Origin: an uncultured Planctomycetia bacterium
GTDB lineage: Bacteria; Planctomycetota; MHYJ01; WSZJ01
Direction of reading: 5' to 3'
Assembly (NCBI GenBank): GCA_964590435.1
Contig: CAZPWT010000008.1
Span: 83,880-147,879, forward strand
Length of the DNA: 64,000 bases
Position numbers and translations under genes: made by a program. Positions 3,055-60,879 of this stretch are shown here, in pieces. Under the pieces are notes generated by a model that saw nothing but the letters and a program-made list of their open reading frames with translations, had not been told where the DNA came from and searched no databases. The stretch's first letter is position 1, and every line of letters starts with the position of its first letter.

Positions 3055-3144
3055 CCCGGTCACAATAACAGGTTCCCCCACCCGTTTCCCCGCCTCACCT
3101 CGACCCTTCCCCTCCACGCCCTCCCTCTCTTATCCTCCCCACCC

Positions 3145-19063: not shown

Positions 19064-20038
19064 CTACTTCTTCTCCCGCAGCCCCTCGAGTTCTGCCTCG
19101 ACGCTCCGGATGATCTCCGTGTTCTTCATGCCCGAGGCCATCGCGGCCTCGAGGTGTCGCTGGGCGTCGTCCAGTCGACCTTCGCAGACTGCTTTCGACC
19201 CGGCCAGGAAGCGCCCCTCCGACTTGCGCAGGCTGTCGATGTTCTCGATCGACCCCTTCGCTTCCGCGAGCAGGGCCTCCTCCGTCACGTCCCCGAGGAG
19301 AAACAGCCCATAGGACTCCACCCGATCTCCCCGGGGTTTCCTCCCTTTCAACCACTCCCGCAGCTCCCCGTCCGCCGCCTCCTTCTTCCCAAGCCGCGCC
19401 TTGAGGATCCAGATCCGCAGCCGCGTGTAGTCCTGCCCCTCGCTCTCCAGCGAAACGCTCTTCTCCAGGTCCGCCAGCGCGTCTTCCCATTCGCGAAGGT
19501 TGTAGAGGCAGAGGCCGCGGTTGAGGTAGGCGCGGGCGTAATTCGGGTTGAGCTGAAGGGCCATCGTGGCGTCCTTGAGGGCGCCGTCGGCATCGCCGTT
19601 GAGGCGCTTCGCGAACGACCGGTTGTTCCACGCGAGCGCCAGGTCGGGGTCGAGGCGCAGCGCGGCGTCGTAGGAAGCGATGGCGCCGGCGAGGTCGCCG
19701 GAGTCGGCCTTGGCGAGGCCGAGGTCGTTGTGGAGGCCGGCGTTTTCGGGGGCGAGGGTGAGAGCCTTGTCGAAGTCCTCGAGAGCGCCCTTGAGATCCC
19801 CAAGGCGTCGGCGTATCAACGCGCGGTTGTGCCACGCTGTGTCATCCAGGGGATCGGATTCGATCAGCCGGGTGCAAGCCTGCTCGGCCCGCTTGAGTCC
19901 GTCCGTGGAACACCTTTCCCAACTGCGGAGGGTGTGCGGCTCAGGGAGCGGATCGTCCGCGAACGCAGGAATCACCAGGGCCAGGACCACGAGGGCACGA
20001 AGCATGTCCCCATCATCCCCCGTGCCGTCCCTTTTCAT
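19064..20038 (-). CDS. Secreted TPR-repeat protein
   Basis: Several TPR units (AWHNRALIRRRLGDLKGALEDFDKAL, YNLREWEDALADLEKS); ATG 20038 preceded by an AG-rich tract; alternative start 20005 (MLRALVVLALVIPAFA). Confidence 0.7.
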   Translation of the reverse strand: MKRDGTGDDGDMLRALVVLALVIPAFADDPLPEPHTLRSWERCSTDGLKRAEQACTRLIESDPLDDTAWHNRALIRRRLGDLKGALEDFDKALTLAPENAGLHNDLGLAKADSGDLAGAIASYDAALRLDPDLALAWNNRSFAKRLNGDADGALKDATMALQLNPNYARAYLNRGLCLYNLREWEDALADLEKSVSLESEGQDYTRLRIWILKARLGKKEAADGELREWLKGRKPRGDRVESYGLFLLGDVTEEALLAEAKGSIENIDSLRKSEGRFLAGSKAVCEGRLDDAQRHLEAAMASGMKNTEIIRSVEAELEGLREKK

Positions 20039-20070
20039 TTTTCCTTTTTCCTTTTTCGTTTTTCCTTTCC
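20033..20070. repeat. Pyrimidine-rich TTTTTCC-type tandem tract (AG-rich on the minus strand)
   Basis: tttcatttttcctttttcctttttcgtttttcctttcc, in the divergent region between the TPR and PDZ genes; read on the minus strand it gives repeated GGAAAAA units upstream of the TPR start. Confidence 0.6.
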
Positions 20071-20139: not shown

Positions 20140-21600
20140 ATGCGCCTTCTCGCCGCGCTGTTTGCTGCCGCCGTGCTCGCCCTCCCCGCTTCAGCCCAGA
20201 TGCCCCCCATGCCCGGCCAGGAGGGGACGGATGCGTTCAACCTGGGCGTCCTCGGGGCCGAAGGGCTCCCGATCAAGAAGCCGGACGAATCGCTGAAACT
20301 CCCGCGCGGGGCCGTCGCCATCAAGGTGACGAAAATTCTCGAGGGTGGTCCCGCGCTCGAGGCCGGCCTGGCGGCGGACGACCTGATCGTGGCCGTCGGC
20401 GGGCAGCCGATGACGACGAAGCACATGCTGGCGGTCTACCAGCTGGTGGCGGCGATGGAAGCGGTGTCGTCGACGAAGAAGGGGGAGACGACGCTGACGG
20501 TGATGAGGGACGGGAAGCCGGTGAACCTCAAGCTCAAGCTGCCGGCGCTGGGGCCGCACGGCGCGAACTGCCCGGTCGGGTGCGGGCGGTGCGAGAAGCT
20601 GGTGGACGACTCGCTGAAGATCCTGACGGGGCTGCAGGAAGCGGACGGGGCGTTCCCGATCGGGATCGGCGGGCAGAACGGGCGGGTGGCGGTGACGAGC
20701 CTGGCGGGGCTGGCGTTCCTGGCAAATGGGAGCACGACGAAGGAAGGGACCTACGCGGACAACGTGGCGCGGGCGGCGAAGTGGGTCGCGGAGCGGTGCG
20801 GGAAGGAAGAAGTGAACCCGTGGGGGCAGGAGCGGCCGAAGGGTGGCGCGAACTGGAACCAGACGAACTGGTCGCTGGGGTATGGGTGCCTGTTCCTGAG
20901 CGAGATCTACCGGCTGGACCCGACGCCGGAGCTGGAGCAGCGGCTGACGGAACTGATGCAGACGATCGAGAAGAACCAGGAGACGTCGGGGGGCTGGGCG
21001 CACGGCCCGGGCGGCCCCAACGCCTTGAACTACGTGGAGTTGCAGATCGTCGGGAATCTCGAGCTCGCCGCGCTGGGAGCCCTTCGCAAGGCCGGGTTCA
21101 AGCCGTCGCAGGAGGTGATCGACAAGGGCGTCGCCTACATGATTTCGACGTCGGGCGGCGACGGCGGGATCGGGTACAGCGCGAACCCCGGCCAGCAGGG
21201 GATGGGCGACCCGGGGCGGACGGCGCTGGGCGCCTGGGCGTTCGGGATGCTCGGCATGCAGTCCCACCCCTTCTATGCCAAGATGGGCTCGTACTTCAAG
21301 CGCACGATGGAAGACCTGCCGGGGGGCCACGTTTCGCCGATCATGCACTACACGTCGGCGTCGTTTGCGTGCATGCACCTCGGGGCGGCGTACTGGAAGG
21401 ACTTCATGGCGCTGTTCCGGCTCGAAATCCTCGCGGCGCGGCGGCCGGACGGGACGTTCAGCGCGCGGCCGACGGAGGAAACGGTGGCGATGCACAACAA
21501 CACCGACCGGGAGCTCGGGCCGGGCTGGACGACGGCGAGCTATGCGCTGATCATGCAGGTCCCCCGGGGGAAGCTGAAGATTCTTACCGGAATGAAGTAA
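20140..21600 (+). CDS. Secreted PDZ-domain protein with alpha/alpha-toroid-like C-terminal region
   Basis: GGAGG before ATG; signal peptide; PDZ-like block (VAIKVTKILEGGPALEAGLAADDLIVAVGGQPM); C-terminal region not confidently assigned. Confidence 0.7.
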   Translation: MRLLAALFAAAVLALPASAQMPPMPGQEGTDAFNLGVLGAEGLPIKKPDESLKLPRGAVAIKVTKILEGGPALEAGLAADDLIVAVGGQPMTTKHMLAVYQLVAAMEAVSSTKKGETTLTVMRDGKPVNLKLKLPALGPHGANCPVGCGRCEKLVDDSLKILTGLQEADGAFPIGIGGQNGRVAVTSLAGLAFLANGSTTKEGTYADNVARAAKWVAERCGKEEVNPWGQERPKGGANWNQTNWSLGYGCLFLSEIYRLDPTPELEQRLTELMQTIEKNQETSGGWAHGPGGPNALNYVELQIVGNLELAALGALRKAGFKPSQEVIDKGVAYMISTSGGDGGIGYSANPGQQGMGDPGRTALGAWAFGMLGMQSHPFYAKMGSYFKRTMEDLPGGHVSPIMHYTSASFACMHLGAAYWKDFMALFRLEILAARRPDGTFSARPTEETVAMHNNTDRELGPGWTTASYALIMQVPRGKLKILTGMK

Positions 21601-23424: not shown

Positions 23425-23485
23425 CCCTTTCCCTTTCCCTTTCCCTTGCCCTCCCTCGCAACCCGCAACCCGCAACTCGCAACTC
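23425..23485. repeat. Microsatellite-like tandem repeats (CCCTTT)n and (CNCGCAA)4
   Basis: ccctttccctttcccttgccctccctcgcaacccgcaacccgcaactcgcaactccccc in the intergenic region between the two esterase genes. Confidence 0.6.
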
Positions 23486-26735: not shown

Positions 26736-26776
26736 CTGGTGGTCAGTGGTTGGTGGTCAGTGGTAACGACGACGAA

Positions 26777-26805
26777 AACGGCCACGAGGAGCCCTCGTGG
26801 CCGTT
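26777..26805. terminator. Hairpin, probable bidirectional intrinsic terminator
   Basis: Perfect 13-bp stem AACGGCCACGAGG / CCTCGTGGCCGTT with 3-nt loop, T-rich flank on both strands, at a convergent gene junction. Confidence 0.5.
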
Positions 26806-26862
26806 CTTGTCTCGCGTTTGGATCGGGCCTTGCCCGTCCACCAACCACCGACCACCGACTCC

Positions 26863-27162
26863 CTACCCCTTTTCCGGCCCTCTCGACCCGAGCTCGCGAT
26901 CGATCTCGAGCAGCGCCACGGGATCGTTCTTGATGAGATTGAACTTCGCGACAATGTCCCTCGCCGACTTCTCTTCCTCCACCTGCTCCGTCAGGAACCA
27001 CTGCAGCTCGACCATCAGCGAGAGCGCCTTTTCCTTCTGCGCCAGCTCGTACAGCGCGTCGATCCGCTTCGAAACGCTCAGTTCCTGCGCCAGCGCCGCT
27101 TCGAAGACTTCCTGCATCCCCTTGAACTTCACCTTCGGCTCCGGGATCGCGTTCAGCTTCAC
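26863..27162 (-). pseudogene. Truncated 3-prime copy of the ferritin gene (about 100 C-terminal codons, diverged)
   Basis: About 95% identical at DNA level to 28123..28435 (ferritin C-terminus) with a few amino-acid substitutions; lacks the N-terminal half of ferritin. Confidence 0.6.
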
Positions 27163-41868: not shown

Positions 41869-42993
41869 ATGGCGATCAAGATCGGCGTGCTCGGCGGCGA
41901 CGGGATCGGACCGGAAGTCTGCCGCGAAGGCCTGAAAGTCCTCGACACCGTCTGCGAACTCCGCGGCTTCGACGTGGAGCGCATCGAATGGCCGTACGGC
42001 GCCGACTACTGCATGGAGACCGGCGGCCCCGGCAAGGGGACGGTCCTCCCGGACTCGATCTGGAGCGAGATCAAGGAACTCGACGCCATCTTCCTCGGCG
42101 CGATCGGCGACCCGCGCTTCGAGGCCGGATTCCTCGAGTTCGGCATCGTCGGGAACCTCCGGTTCAAGCTCGACCTTTACGTGAACCTGCGCCCGATCAA
42201 GCTCTACAGCGAGGACCTGTGCCCGCTGAAGGGGAAGGGCGTGAAGGACCTGGACATGCTCGTGGTGCGCGAGAACACGGAGGACGCGTACGCCGGGATC
42301 ATGGGGCACCTCAAGAAAGGGACGCCGGACGAGGTGGCGATCCAGGAGATGATCTACACGCGGAAGGGCGTCGAGCGCGTGATCCGGTATGCGTACCAGA
42401 AGTGCATGGAGCGGAAGAAGGCGTTCAAGCTGTCGCTGGTGGACAAGGCGAACGCGATCCGCGCGCACGACATCTGGCGGCGGACGTTCGCGGAGGTGGG
42501 GAAGGAATTCCCGAAGGTGCAGCAGGACGCGATGTACGTCGACGCGTGCACGATGTGGATGGTGAAAAACCCGGAGAGTTTCGACACCGTGGTGACGACG
42601 AACCTCTTCGGCGACATCATCACCGACCTCGGCGCGATGCTGCAGGGCGGCCTGGGGATCGCGGCGGGCGGCAACATCCACCCGGGGCGGGTCTCGATGT
42701 TCGAGCCGATCCACGGGAGCGCGCCGAAGTACAAGGGGCAGAACAAGGCGAACCCCCTCGCGGCGATCAACGCGATGGGGATGCTGCTCGACCACGTCGG
42801 CCGGAAGGAAGAAGCGGCGCTGATCGAGAAGGCCGTCTCGGGGCTGCTCGCGACGAAGCGCGTGGCGAGCCTTCAGGCCGGCGCGATGCCGTGCGACAAG
42901 ATCGGTGACCTGGTTTCGAATGAAGTGCGTGTGCTGGCGGGGGACAAGCCGAGGAAGAGCGCAACAAAGGGGAAAGTCGGGGCGAAGCGGTAG
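41869..42993 (+). CDS. leuB: 3-isopropylmalate dehydrogenase-like (isocitrate/isopropylmalate dehydrogenase family)
   Basis: GAGAGGAG before ATG; NLFGDIITDL and IHGSAPKYKGQNKANPLAAI family motifs; tartrate dehydrogenase cannot be excluded. Confidence 0.8.
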   Translation: MAIKIGVLGGDGIGPEVCREGLKVLDTVCELRGFDVERIEWPYGADYCMETGGPGKGTVLPDSIWSEIKELDAIFLGAIGDPRFEAGFLEFGIVGNLRFKLDLYVNLRPIKLYSEDLCPLKGKGVKDLDMLVVRENTEDAYAGIMGHLKKGTPDEVAIQEMIYTRKGVERVIRYAYQKCMERKKAFKLSLVDKANAIRAHDIWRRTFAEVGKEFPKVQQDAMYVDACTMWMVKNPESFDTVVTTNLFGDIITDLGAMLQGGLGIAAGGNIHPGRVSMFEPIHGSAPKYKGQNKANPLAAINAMGMLLDHVGRKEEAALIEKAVSGLLATKRVASLQAGAMPCDKIGDLVSNEVRVLAGDKPRKSATKGKVGAKR

Positions 42994-43001
42994 GTGACGA
43001 C

Positions 43002-43026
43002 GTCGAAGGTCGAAGGTTGAAGGTCC
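43002..43026. repeat. GTCGAAG heptamer tandem array
   Basis: gtcgaaggtcgaaggttgaaggtcc, 9 nt after the leuB stop; same element in reverse complement at 52797..52828. Confidence 0.6.
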
Positions 43027-43168
43027 GGGGAAACCGGCAATGATGGACGACCGATTCCCCACCGACACCCCTACCCGATCCCGACACAACCTGCCTGCCC
43101 CCAACCTTCGACTTTCGACGTCCTTTCCTTCCGCAATCTCCTCCCCCACCCACCCCCCGGAGACCCCA

Positions 43169-44270
43169 ATGGCCGAAACACTGCGACGCGCCCAGGAACT
43201 GAAAGCCCGCCTCGATGCCCTCCGGGACTCTCTTTGACCTCCCTAAAAAGAGGCTCGAGCTCGACCGCATAGAGACGGAAATGGGCGCCGCGGACTTCTG
43301 GAACAACCAGGAGGCGGCGAAGAAGAAGGTCCTGCAGCTCAAGGCGCTCAAGGGACTCGTCGACCCCGTCGAAGCGCTCACCAAGGCGTTCACGGACGCC
43401 GCGGAGCTCGCCGAACTCGCCGAGGGCGAGAACGACGCCGCCACCGTCAAGCAGGTCGCCGCCGACCTCGTGAAACTCGAGGCCGAGCTCGCCGCCATCG
43501 AGCTCCGCACGCTCTTCAAGGACGACAACGACTCCCGCGACTGCTTCATGGCCATCCAGGCAGGCACGGGCGGCACCGACGCGTGCGACTGGGCCCAGAT
43601 CATCCTCCGCATGTACAAGGCCTACTGCGAGCGCATGGGGTTCGAGGCCAAGCTGATCGACGTGCAGGAGGCCGACGAGGCCGGCATCCGCTCCGCCACG
43701 CTCGAGGTCCGCGGCCCGTACGCCTACGGTTACCTCAAGGGCGAGCACGGCGTCCACCGGCTCGTCCGCATCTCCCCCTTCGACGCCAACCACCGCCGCC
43801 AGACCGCGTTCGCTTCCGTCGACGTCACGCCGGAGTTCGAGGAGGAGGACATCGAGATCAAGGAAGCGGATCTCAAGATCGACACGTACCGGTCAGGGGG
43901 CGCTGGGGGCCAGCACGTGAACGTGACCGACTCGGCCGTCCGGCTCACACACATCCCGACGGGGATCATCGTCGCGTGCCAGAACGAGCGCTCGCAGCCG
44001 CTCAACAAGAAGATGGCTCTGAAGTACCTCGCCGCGAAGCTCCTCGCGGCGCGCGAGGCCGAGCGCTCCGCCAAGATCGACGCCGCCCGCGGCGCCAAGG
44101 GGCGCATCGGCTTCGGCAGCTCCAGCCAGATCCGCAGCTACACCATGAACCCGTTCCAGCTCGTCAAGGACGCCCGCACCGATATGGAGTCCGGAAACAT
44201 CCAGGCGGTGCTGGACGGCCGGCTGGAGGAGTTCGTCGAGGCCTATCTCAAGTGGAATGCGAGGCAATAG
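43169..44270 (+). CDS. prfB: Peptide chain release factor 2, requires +1 programmed frameshift at 43232..43238
   Basis: ORF0 MAETLRRAQELKARLDALRDSL ends at CTT TGA C; the +1 frame continues DLPKKRLELDRIE through the SGGAGGQHVNVTDSAVRLTHIPTG (GGQ) motif. Confidence 0.85.
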
Positions 44271-48690: not shown

Positions 48691-49119
48691 CTACTTCTTC
48701 CCCTTCACGCCCTCTTCGAACGCGCTCCACGCCAGCAGCGCGCATTTCACGCGCACCGGGAACTTCCTCACGCCCTCCAGCGCCACGATGTCGCCCAGCG
48801 GGTCGGCTTCGTGCTTTTTGGTCTCGCCGCGCATCATCTTCTTGAAGAGCGCCGCGCTGGACATGGCGTCGGCCATGGGCTTGCCCTTGAGGATTTCGGT
48901 CATGAGGGAAGCGGAAGCCTGGGAGATGGCGCAGCCGCGGCCGCGGAACTTGACGTCGGCGACCTTGCCGTCCTTGAGGGAGACGTGGAGGGTGATGTCG
49001 TCGCCGCAGAAGGGATTGTTCATGGAGATGGAGACGTCGGGCGAGGCGATTTCGCCGCGGTTCCGGGGAGCCTTGAAGTGCTCCATGATGATTTCCTGGT
49101 ACAGGCTTTCTAGCGACAT
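48691..49119 (-). CDS. sufU: SUF-type Fe-S cluster scaffold SufU/NifU-like (copy 1)
   Basis: NPFCGDDITL, GRGCAISQASAS and VKCALLAW conserved Cys motifs. Confidence 0.8.
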   Translation of the reverse strand: MSLESLYQEIIMEHFKAPRNRGEIASPDVSISMNNPFCGDDITLHVSLKDGKVADVKFRGRGCAISQASASLMTEILKGKPMADAMSSAALFKKMMRGETKKHEADPLGDIVALEGVRKFPVRVKCALLAWSAFEEGVKGKK

Positions 49120-50339
49120 CCGAAGAACTCCCGTGTGCGGTTGAGGGAATCGACCATCTGGTCGATCTCGGACGTGGAAGTATACACGTAGAAGCTGGCG
49201 CGCGCCGTAGCGACGACACCGAGGCGGCGCATGAGGGGCTGGGCGCAGTGGTGGCCGGCGCGGATGCAGAGGCCGTCCTGGTCGAGGCAGGTGGCGAGGT
49301 CGTGGGGGTGGATCGGCTCGAGGGTGAAGCAGGCGACGCCGCCGCGGGGGCCGGACTGGGGGCCGAAGAGGACGCAGCCGGGAATGGCGGCGAGTTTCTT
49401 CTGGGCGTAGTCGGCGAGGGCTTCCTCGTGGGCGTGGACGGCGTCGAGGCCGAGCCCTTCGAGGTAATCGATGGCGGCGCCGAGGCCGGCGACCTCGGCG
49501 ACGGCGGGGGTGCCGGGCTCGAAGCGGTGCGGCGGGTCGCGGAACGTGGACTTGTCGAGGTACACCTCGAGGATCGTCTCACCGCCGACCATGAACGGGT
49601 CCATCTCGCGCAGGATCTCCGGCCGCGCCCAGAGCACGCCAACCCCCGTCGGGCCGCACATCTTGTGCGCGCTGAACGCGTAGAAATCGCAGCCGAGCGC
49701 GCCGACGTCGACCTTCATGTGCGGCGCCGCCTGCGCCCCGTCGGCGAGGAGCAGCGCCCCGACCGCGTGCGCCTTCGCCGCGATCTGCGCGATCGGGTTG
49801 ATCGTGCCGAGGACGTTCGAGGCGTGGCAGAGGGCAACAAGCCTGGTTTTCCGGGTGAGAAGGGCGTCGAGCGTCGAGAGGTCGAGGCGGCCTTCGTCCG
49901 TAATCGGGATGTGCTTCAGCACGATCCCCCGGTCGCGCTTCAACAGGTGCCACGGGACGAGATTCGAATGGTGCTCCATCTCCGTCAGCAGCACCTCATC
50001 GCCCGCCTTCAGGAACTTCCGCCCCCACCCGTGCGCCACGAGATTCACGGCCTCGGTCGTATTGCGGACGTAGATCACGCCCTCGGCCGACGGCGCGCCG
50101 ATGAACTTCGCGATCTTCTCGCGCGTCCCCTCGAACATCGCCGTCGCTTCCTCGGAAAGCTTGTACGCCCCGCGGTGGACGTTCGCGTTCATCTCGCGAT
50201 AGAAGCGCGCCATCGCTTCGATCACGGCCTCGGGCTTCTGCGACGTCGCGGCGCTGTCGAGATAGACGAGCGGCTTGCCGCGGACCTGGCGTGAGAGGAT
50301 CGGGAAGTCGGCGCGCACGCGAGCGGGATCGAGGTGCAT
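49110..50339 (-). CDS. sufS: Cysteine desulfurase SufS (copy 1)
   Basis: RADFPILSRQVRGKPLVYLDSAATSQKP, PLP-lysine SAHKMCGPTG, active-site RAGHHCAQP; start at internal ATG 50339 preceded by GAGG. Confidence 0.85.
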   Translation of the reverse strand: MHLDPARVRADFPILSRQVRGKPLVYLDSAATSQKPEAVIEAMARFYREMNANVHRGAYKLSEEATAMFEGTREKIAKFIGAPSAEGVIYVRNTTEAVNLVAHGWGRKFLKAGDEVLLTEMEHHSNLVPWHLLKRDRGIVLKHIPITDEGRLDLSTLDALLTRKTRLVALCHASNVLGTINPIAQIAAKAHAVGALLLADGAQAAPHMKVDVGALGCDFYAFSAHKMCGPTGVGVLWARPEILREMDPFMVGGETILEVYLDKSTFRDPPHRFEPGTPAVAEVAGLGAAIDYLEGLGLDAVHAHEEALADYAQKKLAAIPGCVLFGPQSGPRGGVACFTLEPIHPHDLATCLDQDGLCIRAGHHCAQPLMRRLGVVATARASFYVYTSTSEIDQMVDSLNRTREFFGCR

Positions 50340-50423
50340 TTGAGCCTCATTAAACCGGCGCGGCGTGCGACTGCAGGAAAAAAGAGGCTCGACGGATTGA
50401 TTCGCTGCCCCCGGGCCGGTAGG

Positions 50424-50458
50424 ATTCCGATACACATTCGGAGTATCGGAATGTGTAT
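50424..50458. promoter_or_regulatory. Palindromic operator candidate upstream of vapB
   Basis: ATTCCGATAC-N9-GTATCGGAAT perfect 10-bp inverted repeat with overlapping ATACACATTCGG half-sites, ending 12 nt before the vapB Shine-Dalgarno. Confidence 0.45.
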
Positions 50459-51110: not shown

Positions 51111-51563
51111 TCATTCCGTGCTGACCGTCTCCGCCTTCCCCTTCAGCGCCGCCTCCAGCGCGTGCCACGAGAGCGTCGCGCACTTCACGCGCACCGGGAA
51201 CTCGGCCACGCCGGCGAAGATCGCGAGCTTGCCCAGGTCTTCGCCCTCGTAGGGCTTGCCGGCGTCGCGCGTCACCATCGCGTGGTACTTGCGGAAGAGC
51301 GCTTCCGCGTCGGCCTTCGACTTGCCGATGAGCTCCTGGGTCATGATGGAGGCGGCGGCGCGGGAGATGGCGCAGCCGTTGCCGAGGAAGCCGATGTCGG
51401 CGATTTTCTCGCCGTCCATCTTGAGGAAGACCTGGATATGGTCGCCGCAGAGGGGGTTGGCGCCGGCGGCCTTGTGGGTGGCGTCGGGGATGAGCTTGAA
51501 ATTCCGGGGGCGCTTGTAGTGCTCGAGGATGACGTCGCCGTAGAGGTCGGTGAGGTCGCTCAT
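51111..51563 (-). CDS. sufU: SUF-type Fe-S cluster scaffold SufU/NifU-like (copy 2)
   Basis: NPLCGDHIQV, GNGCAISRAAAS, VKCATLSW; ATG overlaps sufS stop (ATGA). Confidence 0.8.
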   Translation of the reverse strand: MSDLTDLYGDVILEHYKRPRNFKLIPDATHKAAGANPLCGDHIQVFLKMDGEKIADIGFLGNGCAISRAAASIMTQELIGKSKADAEALFRKYHAMVTRDAGKPYEGEDLGKLAIFAGVAEFPVRVKCATLSWHALEAALKGKAETVSTE

Positions 51564-52843
51564 GACGTGAACACCTCCACGACCTTGCGGAGGGCGGCCT
51601 CGAGGGCGAGGGCTTCCTCCGGAGTGTTGTAGAACGCGACGGAAGCGCGGGCGGTGGCGGGGAGGCCGAGGCGGGTCATGACGGGCTGGGCACAGTGGTG
51701 GCCGGTGCGGATGGCGACGCCCTCGCGGTCGGCGATGGTGCCGATATCGTGGGGGTGGATGCCCTCGAGGACGAAGGAAGCGACGCCGGCCTTGTCCTTC
51801 GCGGTGCCGACGAGTTTCGCGCCGGGGACGCGGAGGATGGCGGCCTCGAAGGCGGCGAGGAGTTCCTTTTCGCGGGCGGCGATGCGGTCCATGCCGATCG
51901 CCGACAGGTAGTCGATCGCGGCGCCGAGTCCGACGACGCCCTCGATGTTCGGGGTGCCGGCTTCGAACTTCGCGGGGACCTCGGCCCAGGTGGACTTCTC
52001 GAAGCTGACGCTGGAGATCATGTCGCCGCCGCCCTGCCACGGGGGAAGCGAGTTCCAGAGGGCGAGCGGGGCCCAGGCGACGCCGATGCCGGTGGGGGCG
52101 CACATCTTGTGGCCGCTGAAGATATAGAAGTCGGCGCCGATGTCTTTCACGTTCACGGGCTGGTGCGGGACGGCCTGCGCGCCGTCGACGAGGACCGTCG
52201 CGCCGGCGGCCTTCGCCATCCGGGCGATCTCGCGGATCGGGGTGACGGTGCCGAGGGCGTTCGAGACGTGCGTGACGGCGACGAGCTTCGTCTTCGGCGA
52301 CAGGAGCTTCGCGTACTCCGCCATGTCCAGCTCGCCCGCGTCGTTCATGGGGATGACGCGGATCTTCGCGCCCTTCTCTTCGCACAGCAGCTGCCACGGG
52401 ACGATGTTCGAGTGGTGCTCGAGCGTCGAGAGCACGATCTCGTCGCCCTTCCCGATCCGCGTCCGCCCGAACGTCTGGGCGACGAGGTTGATCCCCTCGG
52501 TGGCGCCGCGGACGAAGACGCACTCGCGGGGATCGGCGGCATTGATGAAGCGGGCGACTTTCTTCCGGACGCCCTCGTACGCGATCGTCGCCTGCTCGGA
52601 GAGCCAGTGCACGCCGCGGTGGATGTTGGCGTTGTGCGATTCGTAGTACTCGCGCACCGCGTCGATGACGACCTGCGGCTTCTGGCTCGTCGCGGCGTTG
52701 TCGAGGTAGACGAGCGGCTTGTTGCGCACGGACTGCTTCAACGCCGGAAAGTCGGATCGCACGGCAGCCCAGTCGACCGGGCGGTCGGGGCCAGGCCCTT
52801 CAACCTTCGACCTTCGACCTTCGACGCCGTTCTCCGTCCTCAA
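51560..52843 (-). CDS. sufS: Cysteine desulfurase SufS (copy 2)
   Basis: RSDFPALKQSVRNKPLVYLDNAATSQKP, SGHKMCAPTG, RTGHHCAQP; TTG start placed to overlap the sufD stop (TTGA), a GTG about 75 nt downstream is an alternative; ORF 51560..53389 has an Arg-rich upstream extension. Confidence 0.75.
   Translation of the reverse strand: MRTENGVEGRRSKVEGPGPDRPVDWAAVRSDFPALKQSVRNKPLVYLDNAATSQKPQVVIDAVREYYESHNANIHRGVHWLSEQATIAYEGVRKKVARFINAADPRECVFVRGATEGINLVAQTFGRTRIGKGDEIVLSTLEHHSNIVPWQLLCEEKGAKIRVIPMNDAGELDMAEYAKLLSPKTKLVAVTHVSNALGTVTPIREIARMAKAAGATVLVDGAQAVPHQPVNVKDIGADFYIFSGHKMCAPTGIGVAWAPLALWNSLPPWQGGGDMISSVSFEKSTWAEVPAKFEAGTPNIEGVVGLGAAIDYLSAIGMDRIAAREKELLAAFEAAILRVPGAKLVGTAKDKAGVASFVLEGIHPHDIGTIADREGVAIRTGHHCAQPVMTRLGLPATARASVAFYNTPEEALALEAALRKVVEVFTS
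52797..52828. repeat. GTCGAAG heptamer tandem array (reverse-complement copy)
   Basis: Minus strand reads ggcgtcgaaggtcgaaggtcgaaggttgaagg, shortly after the sufD stop; same unit as 43002..43026 with one extra copy. Confidence 0.6.
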
Positions 52844-54186
52844 GCGTTCCTCCCCGCCTCCAGCAACCTCTGCACGATCGACCGGTCGAGCCACTCCCGC
52901 GTCTCCGGGATCGCGAACTGCACCAGCACGTCCCGCGCGAAAGCATACGTCAGGATCCCCCGCGCCAGCTCCGGCGCGATGCCGCGCGACCGGCAGTAGA
53001 ACACCATCTCCTCGTCCAGCTGCCCCACCGTCGCCCCGTGTGTGCACTTCACGTCGTCCGCGAAGATCTCCAGCTGCGGCTTCGTGTCGACGCGGGCGTC
53101 GTCGGAGAGGAGCAGGTTCTTGTTCGTCTGCTTCGCGTCCGTCTTCTGCGCGTCCTCCCTCACGAACACCTTCCCGTTGAACACCACGTGCGACCGCCCG
53201 TTCAGGATCGCCTTGTAGAACTCGCGGGAAGGGCAGTTCGGGACGGCGTGGTCGATGACGGTGTGGTGGTCGATGTGCTGGTGGCCGGACGCGATCGAAA
53301 GGCCAAGGAACTGCGCCTCTGCGCGCTGGCCGGCGAGGAAGGCGCCGAGGTCGTGGCGGAAGAACTCCGCGCCGGTGACGGCGCTGCACTCCTGGAAGAA
53401 TGCGCCTTCGCCGAGCCGGGCCTGCGTGTTGGCGACGTGGTACGCGTTGCCGCTCTCCGCCTCGAGCCGGATCGACACGAGGCGCGCTCCGGCGGCCAGG
53501 TCCACCTCGGTCACGGCGTTGGTGAAGTAGAGGTCGCAGGAGGGCGAAGCGTAGGCTTCGACGACCTGGACCTGCGCGCCGGCGCCGAGCACGAACAGGT
53601 GCCGCGGGTGGCTGGCGAGGTAGGACTCGTGCGACAGGTGCAGGACAAGGACCGGCTTCTCGACGACTTTCCCTTCAGGCACGTACACGAACGCCCCGTC
53701 CTGGAACAGCGCGGTGTTGAGCGCCGTGAACGCCGTCGCGCCCGGCTTCGCGAGCTTCCCGAGCCGCGGCTCGATGATCGCGCGGTGCTTCTCGAGCGCC
53801 TCCGCGAGGCTGCACACCACGACGCCCGCCGGGAGCCCGTCGAGCTTCGAGAGCTCCTTCGAGAAGAACCCGTCCACGACCACGATCCGCGGCGAATTCT
53901 CCAGCCCGAACGTGAACAGCTTCGCCGTGTTCGCGACCAGCGCGTCCTTCTTCGGCTCCAGCGACTGCCGGAACCCCGTCTTCACCAGCGTCTCGACGCT
54001 CGTGTACCGCCACTCCTCGTCCGCGGTCGTCGGGAACCCGCGCTCCCGGAACGCCGCCGCGCCGAGCTTCCGCAACTCCGCGAGCCACGGGAAGCGCTTC
54101 CAGCCCGCGCTCCGCTCCCCCGCCTCGAGGTGGGCGGGCCAGCAGCCGCCGAGGACGGCGGGCTTCTCGAGGGCGGCCGTGCTCAT
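52840..54186 (-). CDS. sufD: Fe-S cluster assembly protein SufD
   Basis: 448 aa SufD-like sequence; ATG overlaps sufC stop (ATGA). Confidence 0.85.
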
Positions 54187-59890: not shown

Positions 59891-60879
59891 GAGTTGCCAG
59901 CGGCCGGCGGCCAGCGGCCAGGGGCCTGGTCCTGATGGCGGTCCTGTCGATGTCGCTCCCCGCGGCGGCGGAGGAGCTCGACCTCGAGGGGTGGTGGAAG
60001 GACGCCTGCTTGTGGGAGGTCGGGTCGAACCTGGAGAAGGTGCCGGCCGCGCGGAAGAAGCTCATTGAAGCGGGTGCGCCTACGATCGAATTCCTCATCC
60101 CGGGGAAACTTGACGCGGCGGACACGATCATCACCCGCGCGCTCAGCATGGTCATCACCGGCATCGCGGGGACGGCTACGCAGAAGCCGCAGAGCCTGGA
60201 GATCCGCGAGAAGACCATCAAGGGGCTGATCGCCGCCATCGACTCGAACCTGCCCAACGTCCGCCGCAACGCCGCCGACCTCCTCGGCCAGCTCGGCGCC
60301 ACCGAGGCCGCTTCGAAAATCGCCGGCCTCCTCGCCGACAAGGACGCCCGCGGCGGCGCGCTCGCCGCCCTCGGCGCGCTCAAGGCCCAGTCCGCCGTGC
60401 CGGCCATCGCCGCCATGGCGCGCGACGCCTCCGTCTCCGAACGCGGGCGCTTCACCGCCGTCTCCACACTCGGCGCCATCGGCGGTCCCGACGCCCAGGC
60501 CGCCCTCCTCGAGTTCCTCGGCGACAAGCTCGCGACCGTGCGCTTCGCCGCCCAGTACGCGCTCGAAGCGATGCGTTCCACCGGGGCGTTCGTCAGCAGG
60601 CTCCGCGACGCCGACCGCCGCGTCCGCATCCACGCTCTCTCCGCCCTCGGCCACCTCGCCGAGCGCTCCACCCGCGCCGACATCCGCCCGCTCCTCGACG
60701 ATCCCGACGCGACCGTGCGCGGCTTCGCGGTGGAAGCGCTGGCGGCGATGCCGAAGCCGTCGGACCGGGCGTGGGTGGACGCGATGCTCGTGACGGAGAA
60801 GGACGAGTTCGTGCGCGGCAAGCTGCTCGAGGCGCGCGGGATCCTGCTCGACCCGCCTCGGCCGGACGGGACGAGGTAG
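59887..60879 (+). CDS. Secreted HEAT-repeat protein, translationally coupled to the upstream repeat protein
   Basis: ATG overlaps upstream stop (ATGA); signal peptide; repeated xxVRxxAAxALGxLG-type HEAT units. Confidence 0.7.
   Translation: MRVASGRRPAARGLVLMAVLSMSLPAAAEELDLEGWWKDACLWEVGSNLEKVPAARKKLIEAGAPTIEFLIPGKLDAADTIITRALSMVITGIAGTATQKPQSLEIREKTIKGLIAAIDSNLPNVRRNAADLLGQLGATEAASKIAGLLADKDARGGALAALGALKAQSAVPAIAAMARDASVSERGRFTAVSTLGAIGGPDAQAALLEFLGDKLATVRFAAQYALEAMRSTGAFVSRLRDADRRVRIHALSALGHLAERSTRADIRPLLDDPDATVRGFAVEALAAMPKPSDRAWVDAMLVTEKDEFVRGKLLEARGILLDPPRPDGTR

Follow-up and report, generated by a model that had tools for sequence, protein, structure and literature searches.

The question raised by this locus is why a short tandem array of the heptamer GTCGAAG lies directly after the stop codon of leuB, why the same element with another copy number recurs after the stop codon of sufD, and whether such arrays do anything there. 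By the window we mean the whole stretch of DNA that was analysed, 64 kb in length, which contains both junctions. The first junction is composed as follows.

41869-42993, + strand: leuB, 3-isopropylmalate dehydrogenase (NCBIfam)
42987-43019, + strand: 5' arm of an inverted repeat, 33 nt, which includes the leuB TAG
43002-43025, + strand: site 1, the heptamer array, core of the hairpin 5' arm
43020-43101, + strand: spacer or loop of the inverted repeat, 82 nt
43102-43134, + strand: 3' arm of the inverted repeat, which contains the reverse-complement array and whose end is 35 nt short of the prfB ATG

At site 1, two GTCGAAG units are followed by GTTGAAG and a final G, i.e., (GTCGAAG)2-GTTGAAGG, to which Tandem Repeats Finder assigns a period of 7, 3.4 copies and a score of 41. 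The leuB stop codon is TAG (42991-42993), and 8 nt stand between it and the array, which runs from +9. The letters read at 43002-43025 bear out both the sequence and the start 9 nt past the leuB stop that were given in the original prediction, and the gene names given there (leuB, prfB, sufB/sufC/sufD/sufS) are all correct by NCBIfam. The array is intergenic between leuB and prfB, its end lying 144 nt from the prfB ATG (43170). As a separate observation on the neighbouring gene, it is noted that prfB (43170-43238, + strand) is subject to the classical programmed +1 frameshift, the short first frame starting at the ATG at 43170 and ending at CTC TTT GAC (43230-43238) and the main frame spanning 43215-44270; the frameshift motif is kept in all relatives.

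Absent from the original prediction is a reverse-complement copy of two units (GTCGAAAGTCGAAG on the minus strand), which lies at 43106-43119, about 80 nt 3' of site 1. Site 1 and this copy are part of an inverted repeat of 148 nt in total, with 33-nt arms of 85% complementarity and the 82-nt spacer, which fills nearly the whole leuB-prfB spacer. The RNA of the + strand from 42980 to 43170 is predicted to fold with -72 kcal/mol, with z = -4.4 relative to dinucleotide shuffles, and the stem built of the arrays is continuous over 21 bp on this strand, the single imperfect position being a G-U pair. In the RNA of the minus strand an A-C mismatch stands at the position of the G-U pair and z is just -2.5. 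The hairpin differs from an intrinsic terminator, i.e., a short GC-rich stem-loop followed by a U-tract, in that the stem is long, the loop region comprises 82 nt and the tail reads CUUUCCUU, with the tract downstream of the stem being only a weak CUUUCCUUCC. A consensus scan of 42800-43300 gave no sigma-70 promoter and no canonical terminator, and the Rfam 15 families gave 0 matches at the gathering threshold in the whole 64-kb window. Note also that the public Logan contig L121 ends, at 3096-3116, in an Illumina adapter (GATCGGAAGAGCACACGTCT) within the hairpin spacer, which is an assembly artefact.

The comparison with other genomes indicates how old this element may be. In two other metagenome samples (L121 and L122) LeuB, the array and the inverted partner are all identical to those of the window, and no strain-level copy-number polymorphism was found among the contigs with identical LeuB or SufD (L121, L122 and L126), all of which carry identical arrays. 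By the names of its closest SufS and LeuB homologues, the source belongs to the Planctomycetota. In six related Planctomycetota lineages with 86-92% LeuB identity (compared in L128-L131, L132, L133/L134, L135 and L123/L124), leuB is directly upstream of prfB in all, with leuB-prfB spacers of 7, 24, 70, 70 and 75 nt, and a heptamer array or inverted repeat is present at this junction in 0 of the 6. Since the six lineages keep the leuB-prfB arrangement without the array, site 1 was gained recently, and the 148-nt element is a recent and dispensable acquisition of the lineage of the window; because the hairpin is missing from all relatives, any function that it has would be dispensable, and the hairpin is possibly neutral. 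Two details of the relatives are recorded here for themselves. In L133 an ordinary terminator-like hairpin, GACGGGAGAAGGG...CCCCTCTCCCGTC followed by the T-run TCCTTTTTG, occupies 1977-2050 at the place of the array hairpin of the window, and in L128 the leuB stop and the prfB ATG are separated by 7 nt only.

The second junction is composed as follows.

51560-52843, - strand: sufS, cysteine desulfurase, 427 aa from TTG, with site 2 in its 5' end (NCBIfam)
52797-52825, - strand: site 2, the heptamer array, 14 nt past the sufD stop
52840-52843, - strand: TTGA overlap of the sufS TTG (52843-52841) and the sufD TGA (52842-52840)
52840-54186, - strand: sufD ORF, with its TGA at 52842-52840 (NCBIfam)

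At site 2, three GTCGAAG units are followed by GTTGAAGG (GTTGAAG(G)), with a period of 7, 4.1 copies and a score of 51 by Tandem Repeats Finder; the three-unit element claimed to lie shortly past the sufD stop on the minus strand is thus present, and it has no inverted partner. As it had been left undecided whether this array is intergenic or encodes the first residues of SufS, the start of sufS is of importance here. In the sufS frame, the sole start codons 5' of the conserved core are the TTG (cTTGA) and a GTG at residue 28. The TTG has a GGAGG (GGGAGGAA) 5 nt upstream, which pairs with a generic anti-Shine-Dalgarno (anti-SD) tail at -11.4 kcal/mol, and the alternative GTG has no comparable SD (-4.4 kcal/mol with the same generic tail). 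All of ten aligned SufS homologues have an N-terminal tail of about 20 residues followed by an invariant Asp (D24 in the window), which a start at the GTG would cut off. Moreover, an independent gene caller applied to a contig of the same strain gave a SufS of 427 aa, corresponding to the TTG start, and in relatives an ATG of sufS overlaps the sufD TGA at the same place. On these sequence grounds, site 2 is most likely coding, with sufS starting at the TTG.

The array of site 2 is most likely translated as residues 7-16 of SufS, VEGRRSKVEG, so that the reading given in the original prediction is in the correct frame. In the orthologous DNA of L123/L124 there is a degenerate four-unit array (GTCGAGA, GTCACGG, GTCGAAA, GTCGAGG) in the same frame, translated as VESHGSKVEG; P0002 has VEGPGSKVES at the same stretch, and in L125 the SufS tail is unrelated and the array is absent. 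Since the relatives carry the degenerate array in frame, the array of site 2 predates the split from L123/P0002. The indels in this stretch of the tail among the relatives are all multiples of 3. It appears from these comparisons that site 2 is tolerated within a variable N-terminal tail of SufS, which is probably disordered.

When at most 2 mismatches are allowed, the two-unit pattern is matched 9 times in the window, with 1.45 matches expected, a count that 0 of 100 shuffles reach; three of the nine (32694, 51308 and 58171) are weak chance matches within genes. Further heptamer-type arrays lie at 20028, 23425/23455, 26737/26834 and 59896.

A search for the pattern GTYGAAGGTYGAAGGTYGAAGG in 185,579 species-representative genomes gave at least 120 loci. 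Among the matches listed, carriers of (GTYGAAG)n arrays belong to at least 15 phyla (as named in the records) and include Cyanobacteria (Moorena, Symploca), Chloroflexota, Bacteroidota (among them Pedobacter agri), Rhodothermota/Balneolota, Verrucomicrobiota, Planctomycetota, Acidobacteriota, Gemmatimonadota, Myxococcota, Armatimonadota, Patescibacteria, Omnitrophota, Actinomycetota and Proteobacteria. Again among the matches listed, the arrays are common in Bacteroidota and Cyanobacteria, the array length ranges from 3 to 21 units and the host G+C content from 34 to 75%. In the listed carrier loci, arrays of at least 3 copies number 235 for period 7 and 23, 23 and 28 for periods 6, 8 and 9, and about 117 of the 235 period-7 arrays consist of 91 other units. 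The GTCGAAG array is thus an example of a tendency of certain genomes to carry heptamer repeats in general. A statement of the original prediction, that further copies should exist in the genome and that the element should be conserved at orthologous junctions, holds in part: further copies exist and the sufD-sufS junction keeps a degenerate copy, whereas the leuB-prfB junction keeps none. As a side observation, some other genomes (L094, L105, L010, L115 and L120) carry very long or clustered GTYGAAG-type arrays (15-21 units), together with mixtures of the one-base variants GTGGAAG, GTCGCAG and GTCGAAA over a few kb, and inverted arrays of 18 units are among them; this suggests local families of related units.

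The placement of the arrays relative to genes was analysed for 105 array clusters of the listed loci, with ORFs of at least 150 aa and with antisense and random-position controls. Two classes were left out: arrays 'inside' antisense ORFs, as the absence of stops from all six frames of GTCGAAG arrays inflates spurious ORFs, and stops at 'distance -5', which are artefacts of the TGA contained in GTTGAAG units. When the clusters are oriented as GTYGAAG, 51 of the 105 have the stop of such an ORF at most 300 nt upstream, and 21 of these 51 sense arrays start 0-14 nt past the stop, in comparison with 6 of 50 in the antisense control (mode 50-100 nt) and 29 of 595 random positions. The upstream ORFs are genuine, as Pfam domains, which include AcrB, prolyl oligopeptidase, ABC-2, URO-D, alkaline phosphatase and Obg, extend to the C-terminus in 8 of 10 ORFs examined and also in L111 and L120. 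In the listed loci the stop-to-array distance has no frame preference, and coding of the arrays by stop-codon read-through is therefore ruled out. Only 2 of 61 arrays of the listed loci lie between divergent genes and about 40% lie between convergent genes, the distance from an array to the next start being typically tens to hundreds of nt. An inverted partner within 400 nt has the order GTCGAAG...CTTCGAC in 16 of the listed loci and the opposite order in 1. Heptamer arrays with other units are stop-adjacent in 14 of 43 cases, and the stop-adjacent arrays are G-rich and C-poor on the sense strand.

These features can be compared with those of heptamer repeats already described. Rehm et al. (2015) studied GGGAATC repeats in Xanthomonas and GGGGA(C/T)T repeats in Nostoc, which consist mostly of about 4 units, are under-represented between divergent genes, form 70-75 convergent inverted pairs per genome, overlap ORFs in 7-11% of cases, vary between Xcc and Xac, and are transcribed without an identified function (PMC4692102). 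The GTYGAAG arrays are like these repeats in the period of 7, in the typical number of about 4 units, in the stop-proximal position on the coding strand, in the frequent convergent inverted pairs that give potential stem-loops, in the dispersal among housekeeping genes and in the length and sequence differences between close relatives. Unlike them, GTYGAAG has GG tracts only, is found here in a Planctomycetota host and recurs as one unit in at least 15 phyla among the matches listed, and the array of site 2 most likely sits in a coding N-terminal tail. As summarised in later papers (PMC4679880, PMC4692102), Mrázek et al. (2007) found heptanucleotides to be the most abundant class of long SSR (units of 5-11 nt) in many bacterial genomes, with the excess in non-pathogen genomes that are scattered over the phylogeny, and put forward slippage of the polymerase as the origin. 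To this the excess of period 7 by about tenfold over periods 6, 8 and 9 here corresponds; as represented in those summaries, the work concerns genome statistics, with the GTYGAAG unit, Planctomycetota and the hairpin architecture outside its scope.

The cyanobacterial STRR heptamers (Calothrix/Anabaena) and the TAACTGA repeats, the latter common to Beggiatoaceae, Cyanobacteria and Bacteroidetes (MacGregor 2015), are also intergenic tandem heptamers like GTCGAAG, with 2-6 copies or more per set, and TAACTGA is likewise one unit common to distant phyla (PMC4679880). However, the TAACTGA sets lie mostly directly upstream of start codons and contain forward stop codons (PMC4679880), whereas GTCGAAG is open in all six frames and is placed past stop codons. 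Both arrays of the window belong to the known stop-proximal heptanucleotide SSR class, for these defining features were found: a tandem period of 7 nt beyond chance at both sites; further heptamer arrays in the 64-kb window and a period-7 excess in the listed carrier loci; a stop-proximal position (8 nt and 14 nt) with the G-rich strand coding; convergent inverted pairs (the partner of site 1, and 16 loci vs 1); and variation between close relatives, site 1 being absent in six and site 2 being degenerate in L123/L124 and absent in L125. As regards a non-coding location, site 1 is intergenic and site 2 is most likely within the sufS tail. Outside this class, REP/BIME, REPIN and inverted pairs of DNA uptake sequences are inverted short repeats just downstream of genes that give 3' mRNA stem-loops. 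By analogy, the element at site 1 may be likened to them as an inverted pair with a potential 3' stem-loop; unlike REP/REPIN, it has no conserved REP sequence, no dispersed copies of it were found in the DNA searched and its arms are microsatellite arrays.

We propose a model, to which we give a probability of about 0.6, in which the arrays are slippage SSRs, with site 1 incorporated in a recent 3' stem-loop and site 2 passively translated in the SufS tail. The model takes from direct analysis the anatomy of the arrays, the folding energies of the hairpin, the coding status of site 2, the turnover and gain among relatives, and the placement rule. According to it, heptamer arrays would arise and change in length by slipped-strand mispairing and would persist on the coding strand immediately past stop codons, in stretches with little other coding content. 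At site 1, the array, the inverted array and their flanks would have given rise to the 148-nt palindromic element, recent in this lineage, which, when co-transcribed with leuB, would form a long stem-loop extending from the leuB stop to 35 nt before the prfB start. This stem-loop would most probably mark or stabilise the end of the leuB mRNA or damp read-through into prfB, in the manner of REP or uptake-sequence pairs. At site 2, the array would have landed in the stretch after sufD that doubles as the start of sufS, where it would be translated without a specific role. What we infer from these data is the origin by slippage and the role of the hairpin at the level of RNA. The part of the original prediction that took the element for a slippage-type microsatellite of variable copy number is supported, in that the unit recurs in the window and in many genomes (3-21 copies) and the arrays turn over between close relatives.

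It should be noted that neutral slippage alone falls short of the strong coding-strand, stop-proximal bias, and that a further factor, acting on the RNA or in translation or through strand-specific mutation, would therefore be needed. Likewise, the second arm of the pair at site 1 is not behind a convergent gene, so that the origin of this inverted pair falls outside the model. This placement of the class on the coding strand close to stops has already been reported and never explained.

A rival explanation takes this bias as its basis. It states that coding-strand arrays within about 14 nt past stop codons are a selected post-termination RNA element common to many phyla and not inert slippage products, which we regard as unlikely. 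Such an element might act as a platform for RNA-binding proteins (about one protein per 7 nt, in the style of cold-shock domains), as an anti-Rho signal, as a protection of the 3' end or as a modulator of termination and recycling; in the anti-Rho mode, the G-rich, C-poor stretch might discourage the loading of Rho. The orientation and distance bias given above (21/51 sense vs 6/50 antisense within 14 nt of the stop) argues for this explanation, as do its occurrence in at least 15 phyla among the matches listed and for other units (14/43), the G-rich, C-poor composition of the sense strand of stop-adjacent arrays, and the presence of the bias for a unit without G3 tracts, which is beyond the reach of the G-quadruplex idea. 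On the other hand, the arrays are gained and lost between close relatives and are absent at the six orthologous leuB-prfB junctions, and the 91 other units in the listed loci speak against a single sequence-specific partner. Cyanobacteria, which are not known to have Rho, carry arrays nonetheless, which also speaks against this explanation. CspB binding of heptamer repeats, as cited at second hand in PMC4679880, would be in keeping with the protein-platform mode, whereas the published transcriptome analysis of the Rehm repeats found no regulatory effect (PMC4692102). The window alone cannot establish a selected post-termination function.

Less probable again is the insertion between leuB and prfB of a small non-autonomous mobile element (MITE-/REPIN-like), namely the 148-nt unit, the terminal inverted repeats of which would by chance be heptamer arrays. 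This explanation is consistent with the 33-nt terminal inverted arms (85% complementary) that flank the 82-nt spacer in the way of terminal repeats, with the presence or absence of the element as a block in comparison with the six relatives, and with the hairpin geometry and the post-stop site, which resemble those of REP doublets. However, local BLAST with the 148-nt element or its spacer matched only its own locus in contigs of the same strain. Neither has a second copy in the DNA searched, which comprised the 64 kb of the window, some 60 kb from close relatives and the 120 listed loci, and because the spacer of site 1 is unique in all of this DNA, there is no sign in it of the element moving as a unit. 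No target-site duplication is visible, and the intergenic DNA of the relatives is too diverged for insertion boundaries to be set. Moreover, the like-built pair at 26737-26859 has another heptamer and another spacer and is explained by arrays behind convergent stops.

It had also been suggested that the SD-like GAAGG motifs repeated in the array retain ribosomes, either terminating or on standby, for re-initiation at prfB and sufS, which we consider very improbable. Every unit does contain GAAGG, and each of the two arrays has a stop codon before it and a co-directional gene next to it. Nevertheless, 144 nt separate site 1 from the prfB ATG, and site 1 is base-paired in the predicted hairpin, and site 2 is downstream of the sufS TTG and 35 nt away even from the alternative GTG. 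The pairing of the array with the anti-SD is discontinuous, at -9.1 kcal/mol, which 16% of random 25-mers of the window match or beat, while a canonical SD gives -16.1 kcal/mol, a generic anti-SD tail and not the organism's own 16S being assumed in this calculation. Across genomes the arrays follow the upstream stop and not the downstream start, with about 40% of them lying between convergent genes, where there is no downstream start. Bacteroidota and Cyanobacteria make little use of SD pairing, and arrays are abundant in such phyla. In view of the positions, the weak anti-SD pairing and the tracking of stops across genomes, the idea of SD, standby or re-initiation function is not supported.

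Equally improbable for this unit is the quadruplex formation proposed for GGGAATC/GGGGAYT (PMC4692102), according to which the repeats with four GG tracts and 5-nt loops would form a two-tetrad quadruplex: four G-runs are present in both arrays (GG, GG, GG, then GGGG or GGG) and the preference for about four units is also that of the published class (PMC4692102), but the rationale is inapplicable to GTYGAAG because the unit has GG tracts only, in place of at least 4 G-tracts of at least 3 G, G4-aware folding of both arrays gives ordinary weak hairpins and no quadruplex, and the array of site 1 is locked in a far more stable predicted duplex.

The change of annotation in the window is limited to the placing of the sufS start at the TTG that shares bases with the sufD stop and to the lineage-specific leuB-prfB hairpin. 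For the heptamer class, what is new is a non-G-tract unit (GTYGAAG), a new phylum, a wide taxonomic spread and one coding copy. Since the placement rule is seen without quadruplex potential, G4 formation, the leading published rationale, cannot be its general explanation; and if the explanation by a selected RNA element is true, a unit without G3 in at least 15 phyla shows that the placement rule is independent of G-quadruplex formation.

Several minor observations concern the other arrays of the window. There is a second inverted pair of short-period arrays with another unit (GGTGGTCAGTGGTT x2 at 26737-26764 on the + strand, CCACCAACCACCGACCACCGAC at 26834-26859). It lies between two convergent genes, namely a + strand ORF of 534 aa and a ferritin-like gene of the - strand (stop at 26863), with each array 3-5 nt past the stop of its own gene and G-rich on the coding strand of that gene. 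The pair encloses a terminator-like hairpin at 26780-26802 (GGCCACGAGG-agc-CCTCGTGGCC, followed by GTTCTTG), and the whole region is predicted to fold with -87.9 kcal/mol (z = -7.8). At 23425-23485 (+ strand), CCCTTT x4.7 and CTCGCAA x4.4 are adjacent, starting 3 nt past a TAA stop, with the ATG of the next gene (23516, carboxylesterase) 31-90 nt downstream; the coding strand of both is C-rich, a polarity opposite to that of GTCGAAG, and the CTCGCAA unit reappears as TTGCGAG at another junction in the relative L123. At 20028-20068 (+ strand), TCCTTTT x5.9 lies between divergent genes, namely a TPR protein gene on the - strand that starts near 20008 and a gene for a PDZ/DUF6288 protein that starts at 20140. 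Read on the minus strand, it is a run of AAAAGGA repeats about 20 nt upstream of the start of the TPR gene, and it is the sole array in the window placed where an SD-like repeat could matter.

At 59896-59926 (+ strand), GCCAGCG x4.4 follows straight after an ATGA stop/start overlap and falls in the signal-peptide region at the N-terminus of the gene downstream (MRVASGRRPAARGLVLMAVL...). In L123 the orthologous junction (2821-2851, - strand) has a different unit, TTGCGAG x4.4 (MRVARCELRVARNGL...). The array at 59896 appears to be a second case, besides that of site 2, of a post-stop array that is translated in the N-terminus of the next gene and evolves fast.

Finally, we note that when the TPR gene between the leuB-prfB and sufD-sufS junctions was used as a metagenome query, one contig of 1.3 kb was returned, and that a second cysteine desulfurase (Aminotran_5, 441 aa) forms a gene pair with a NifU_N gene at 48691-50435 (- strand), about 1-3 kb downstream of sufBCDS-nifU, a pair that is kept in L123 and L125.
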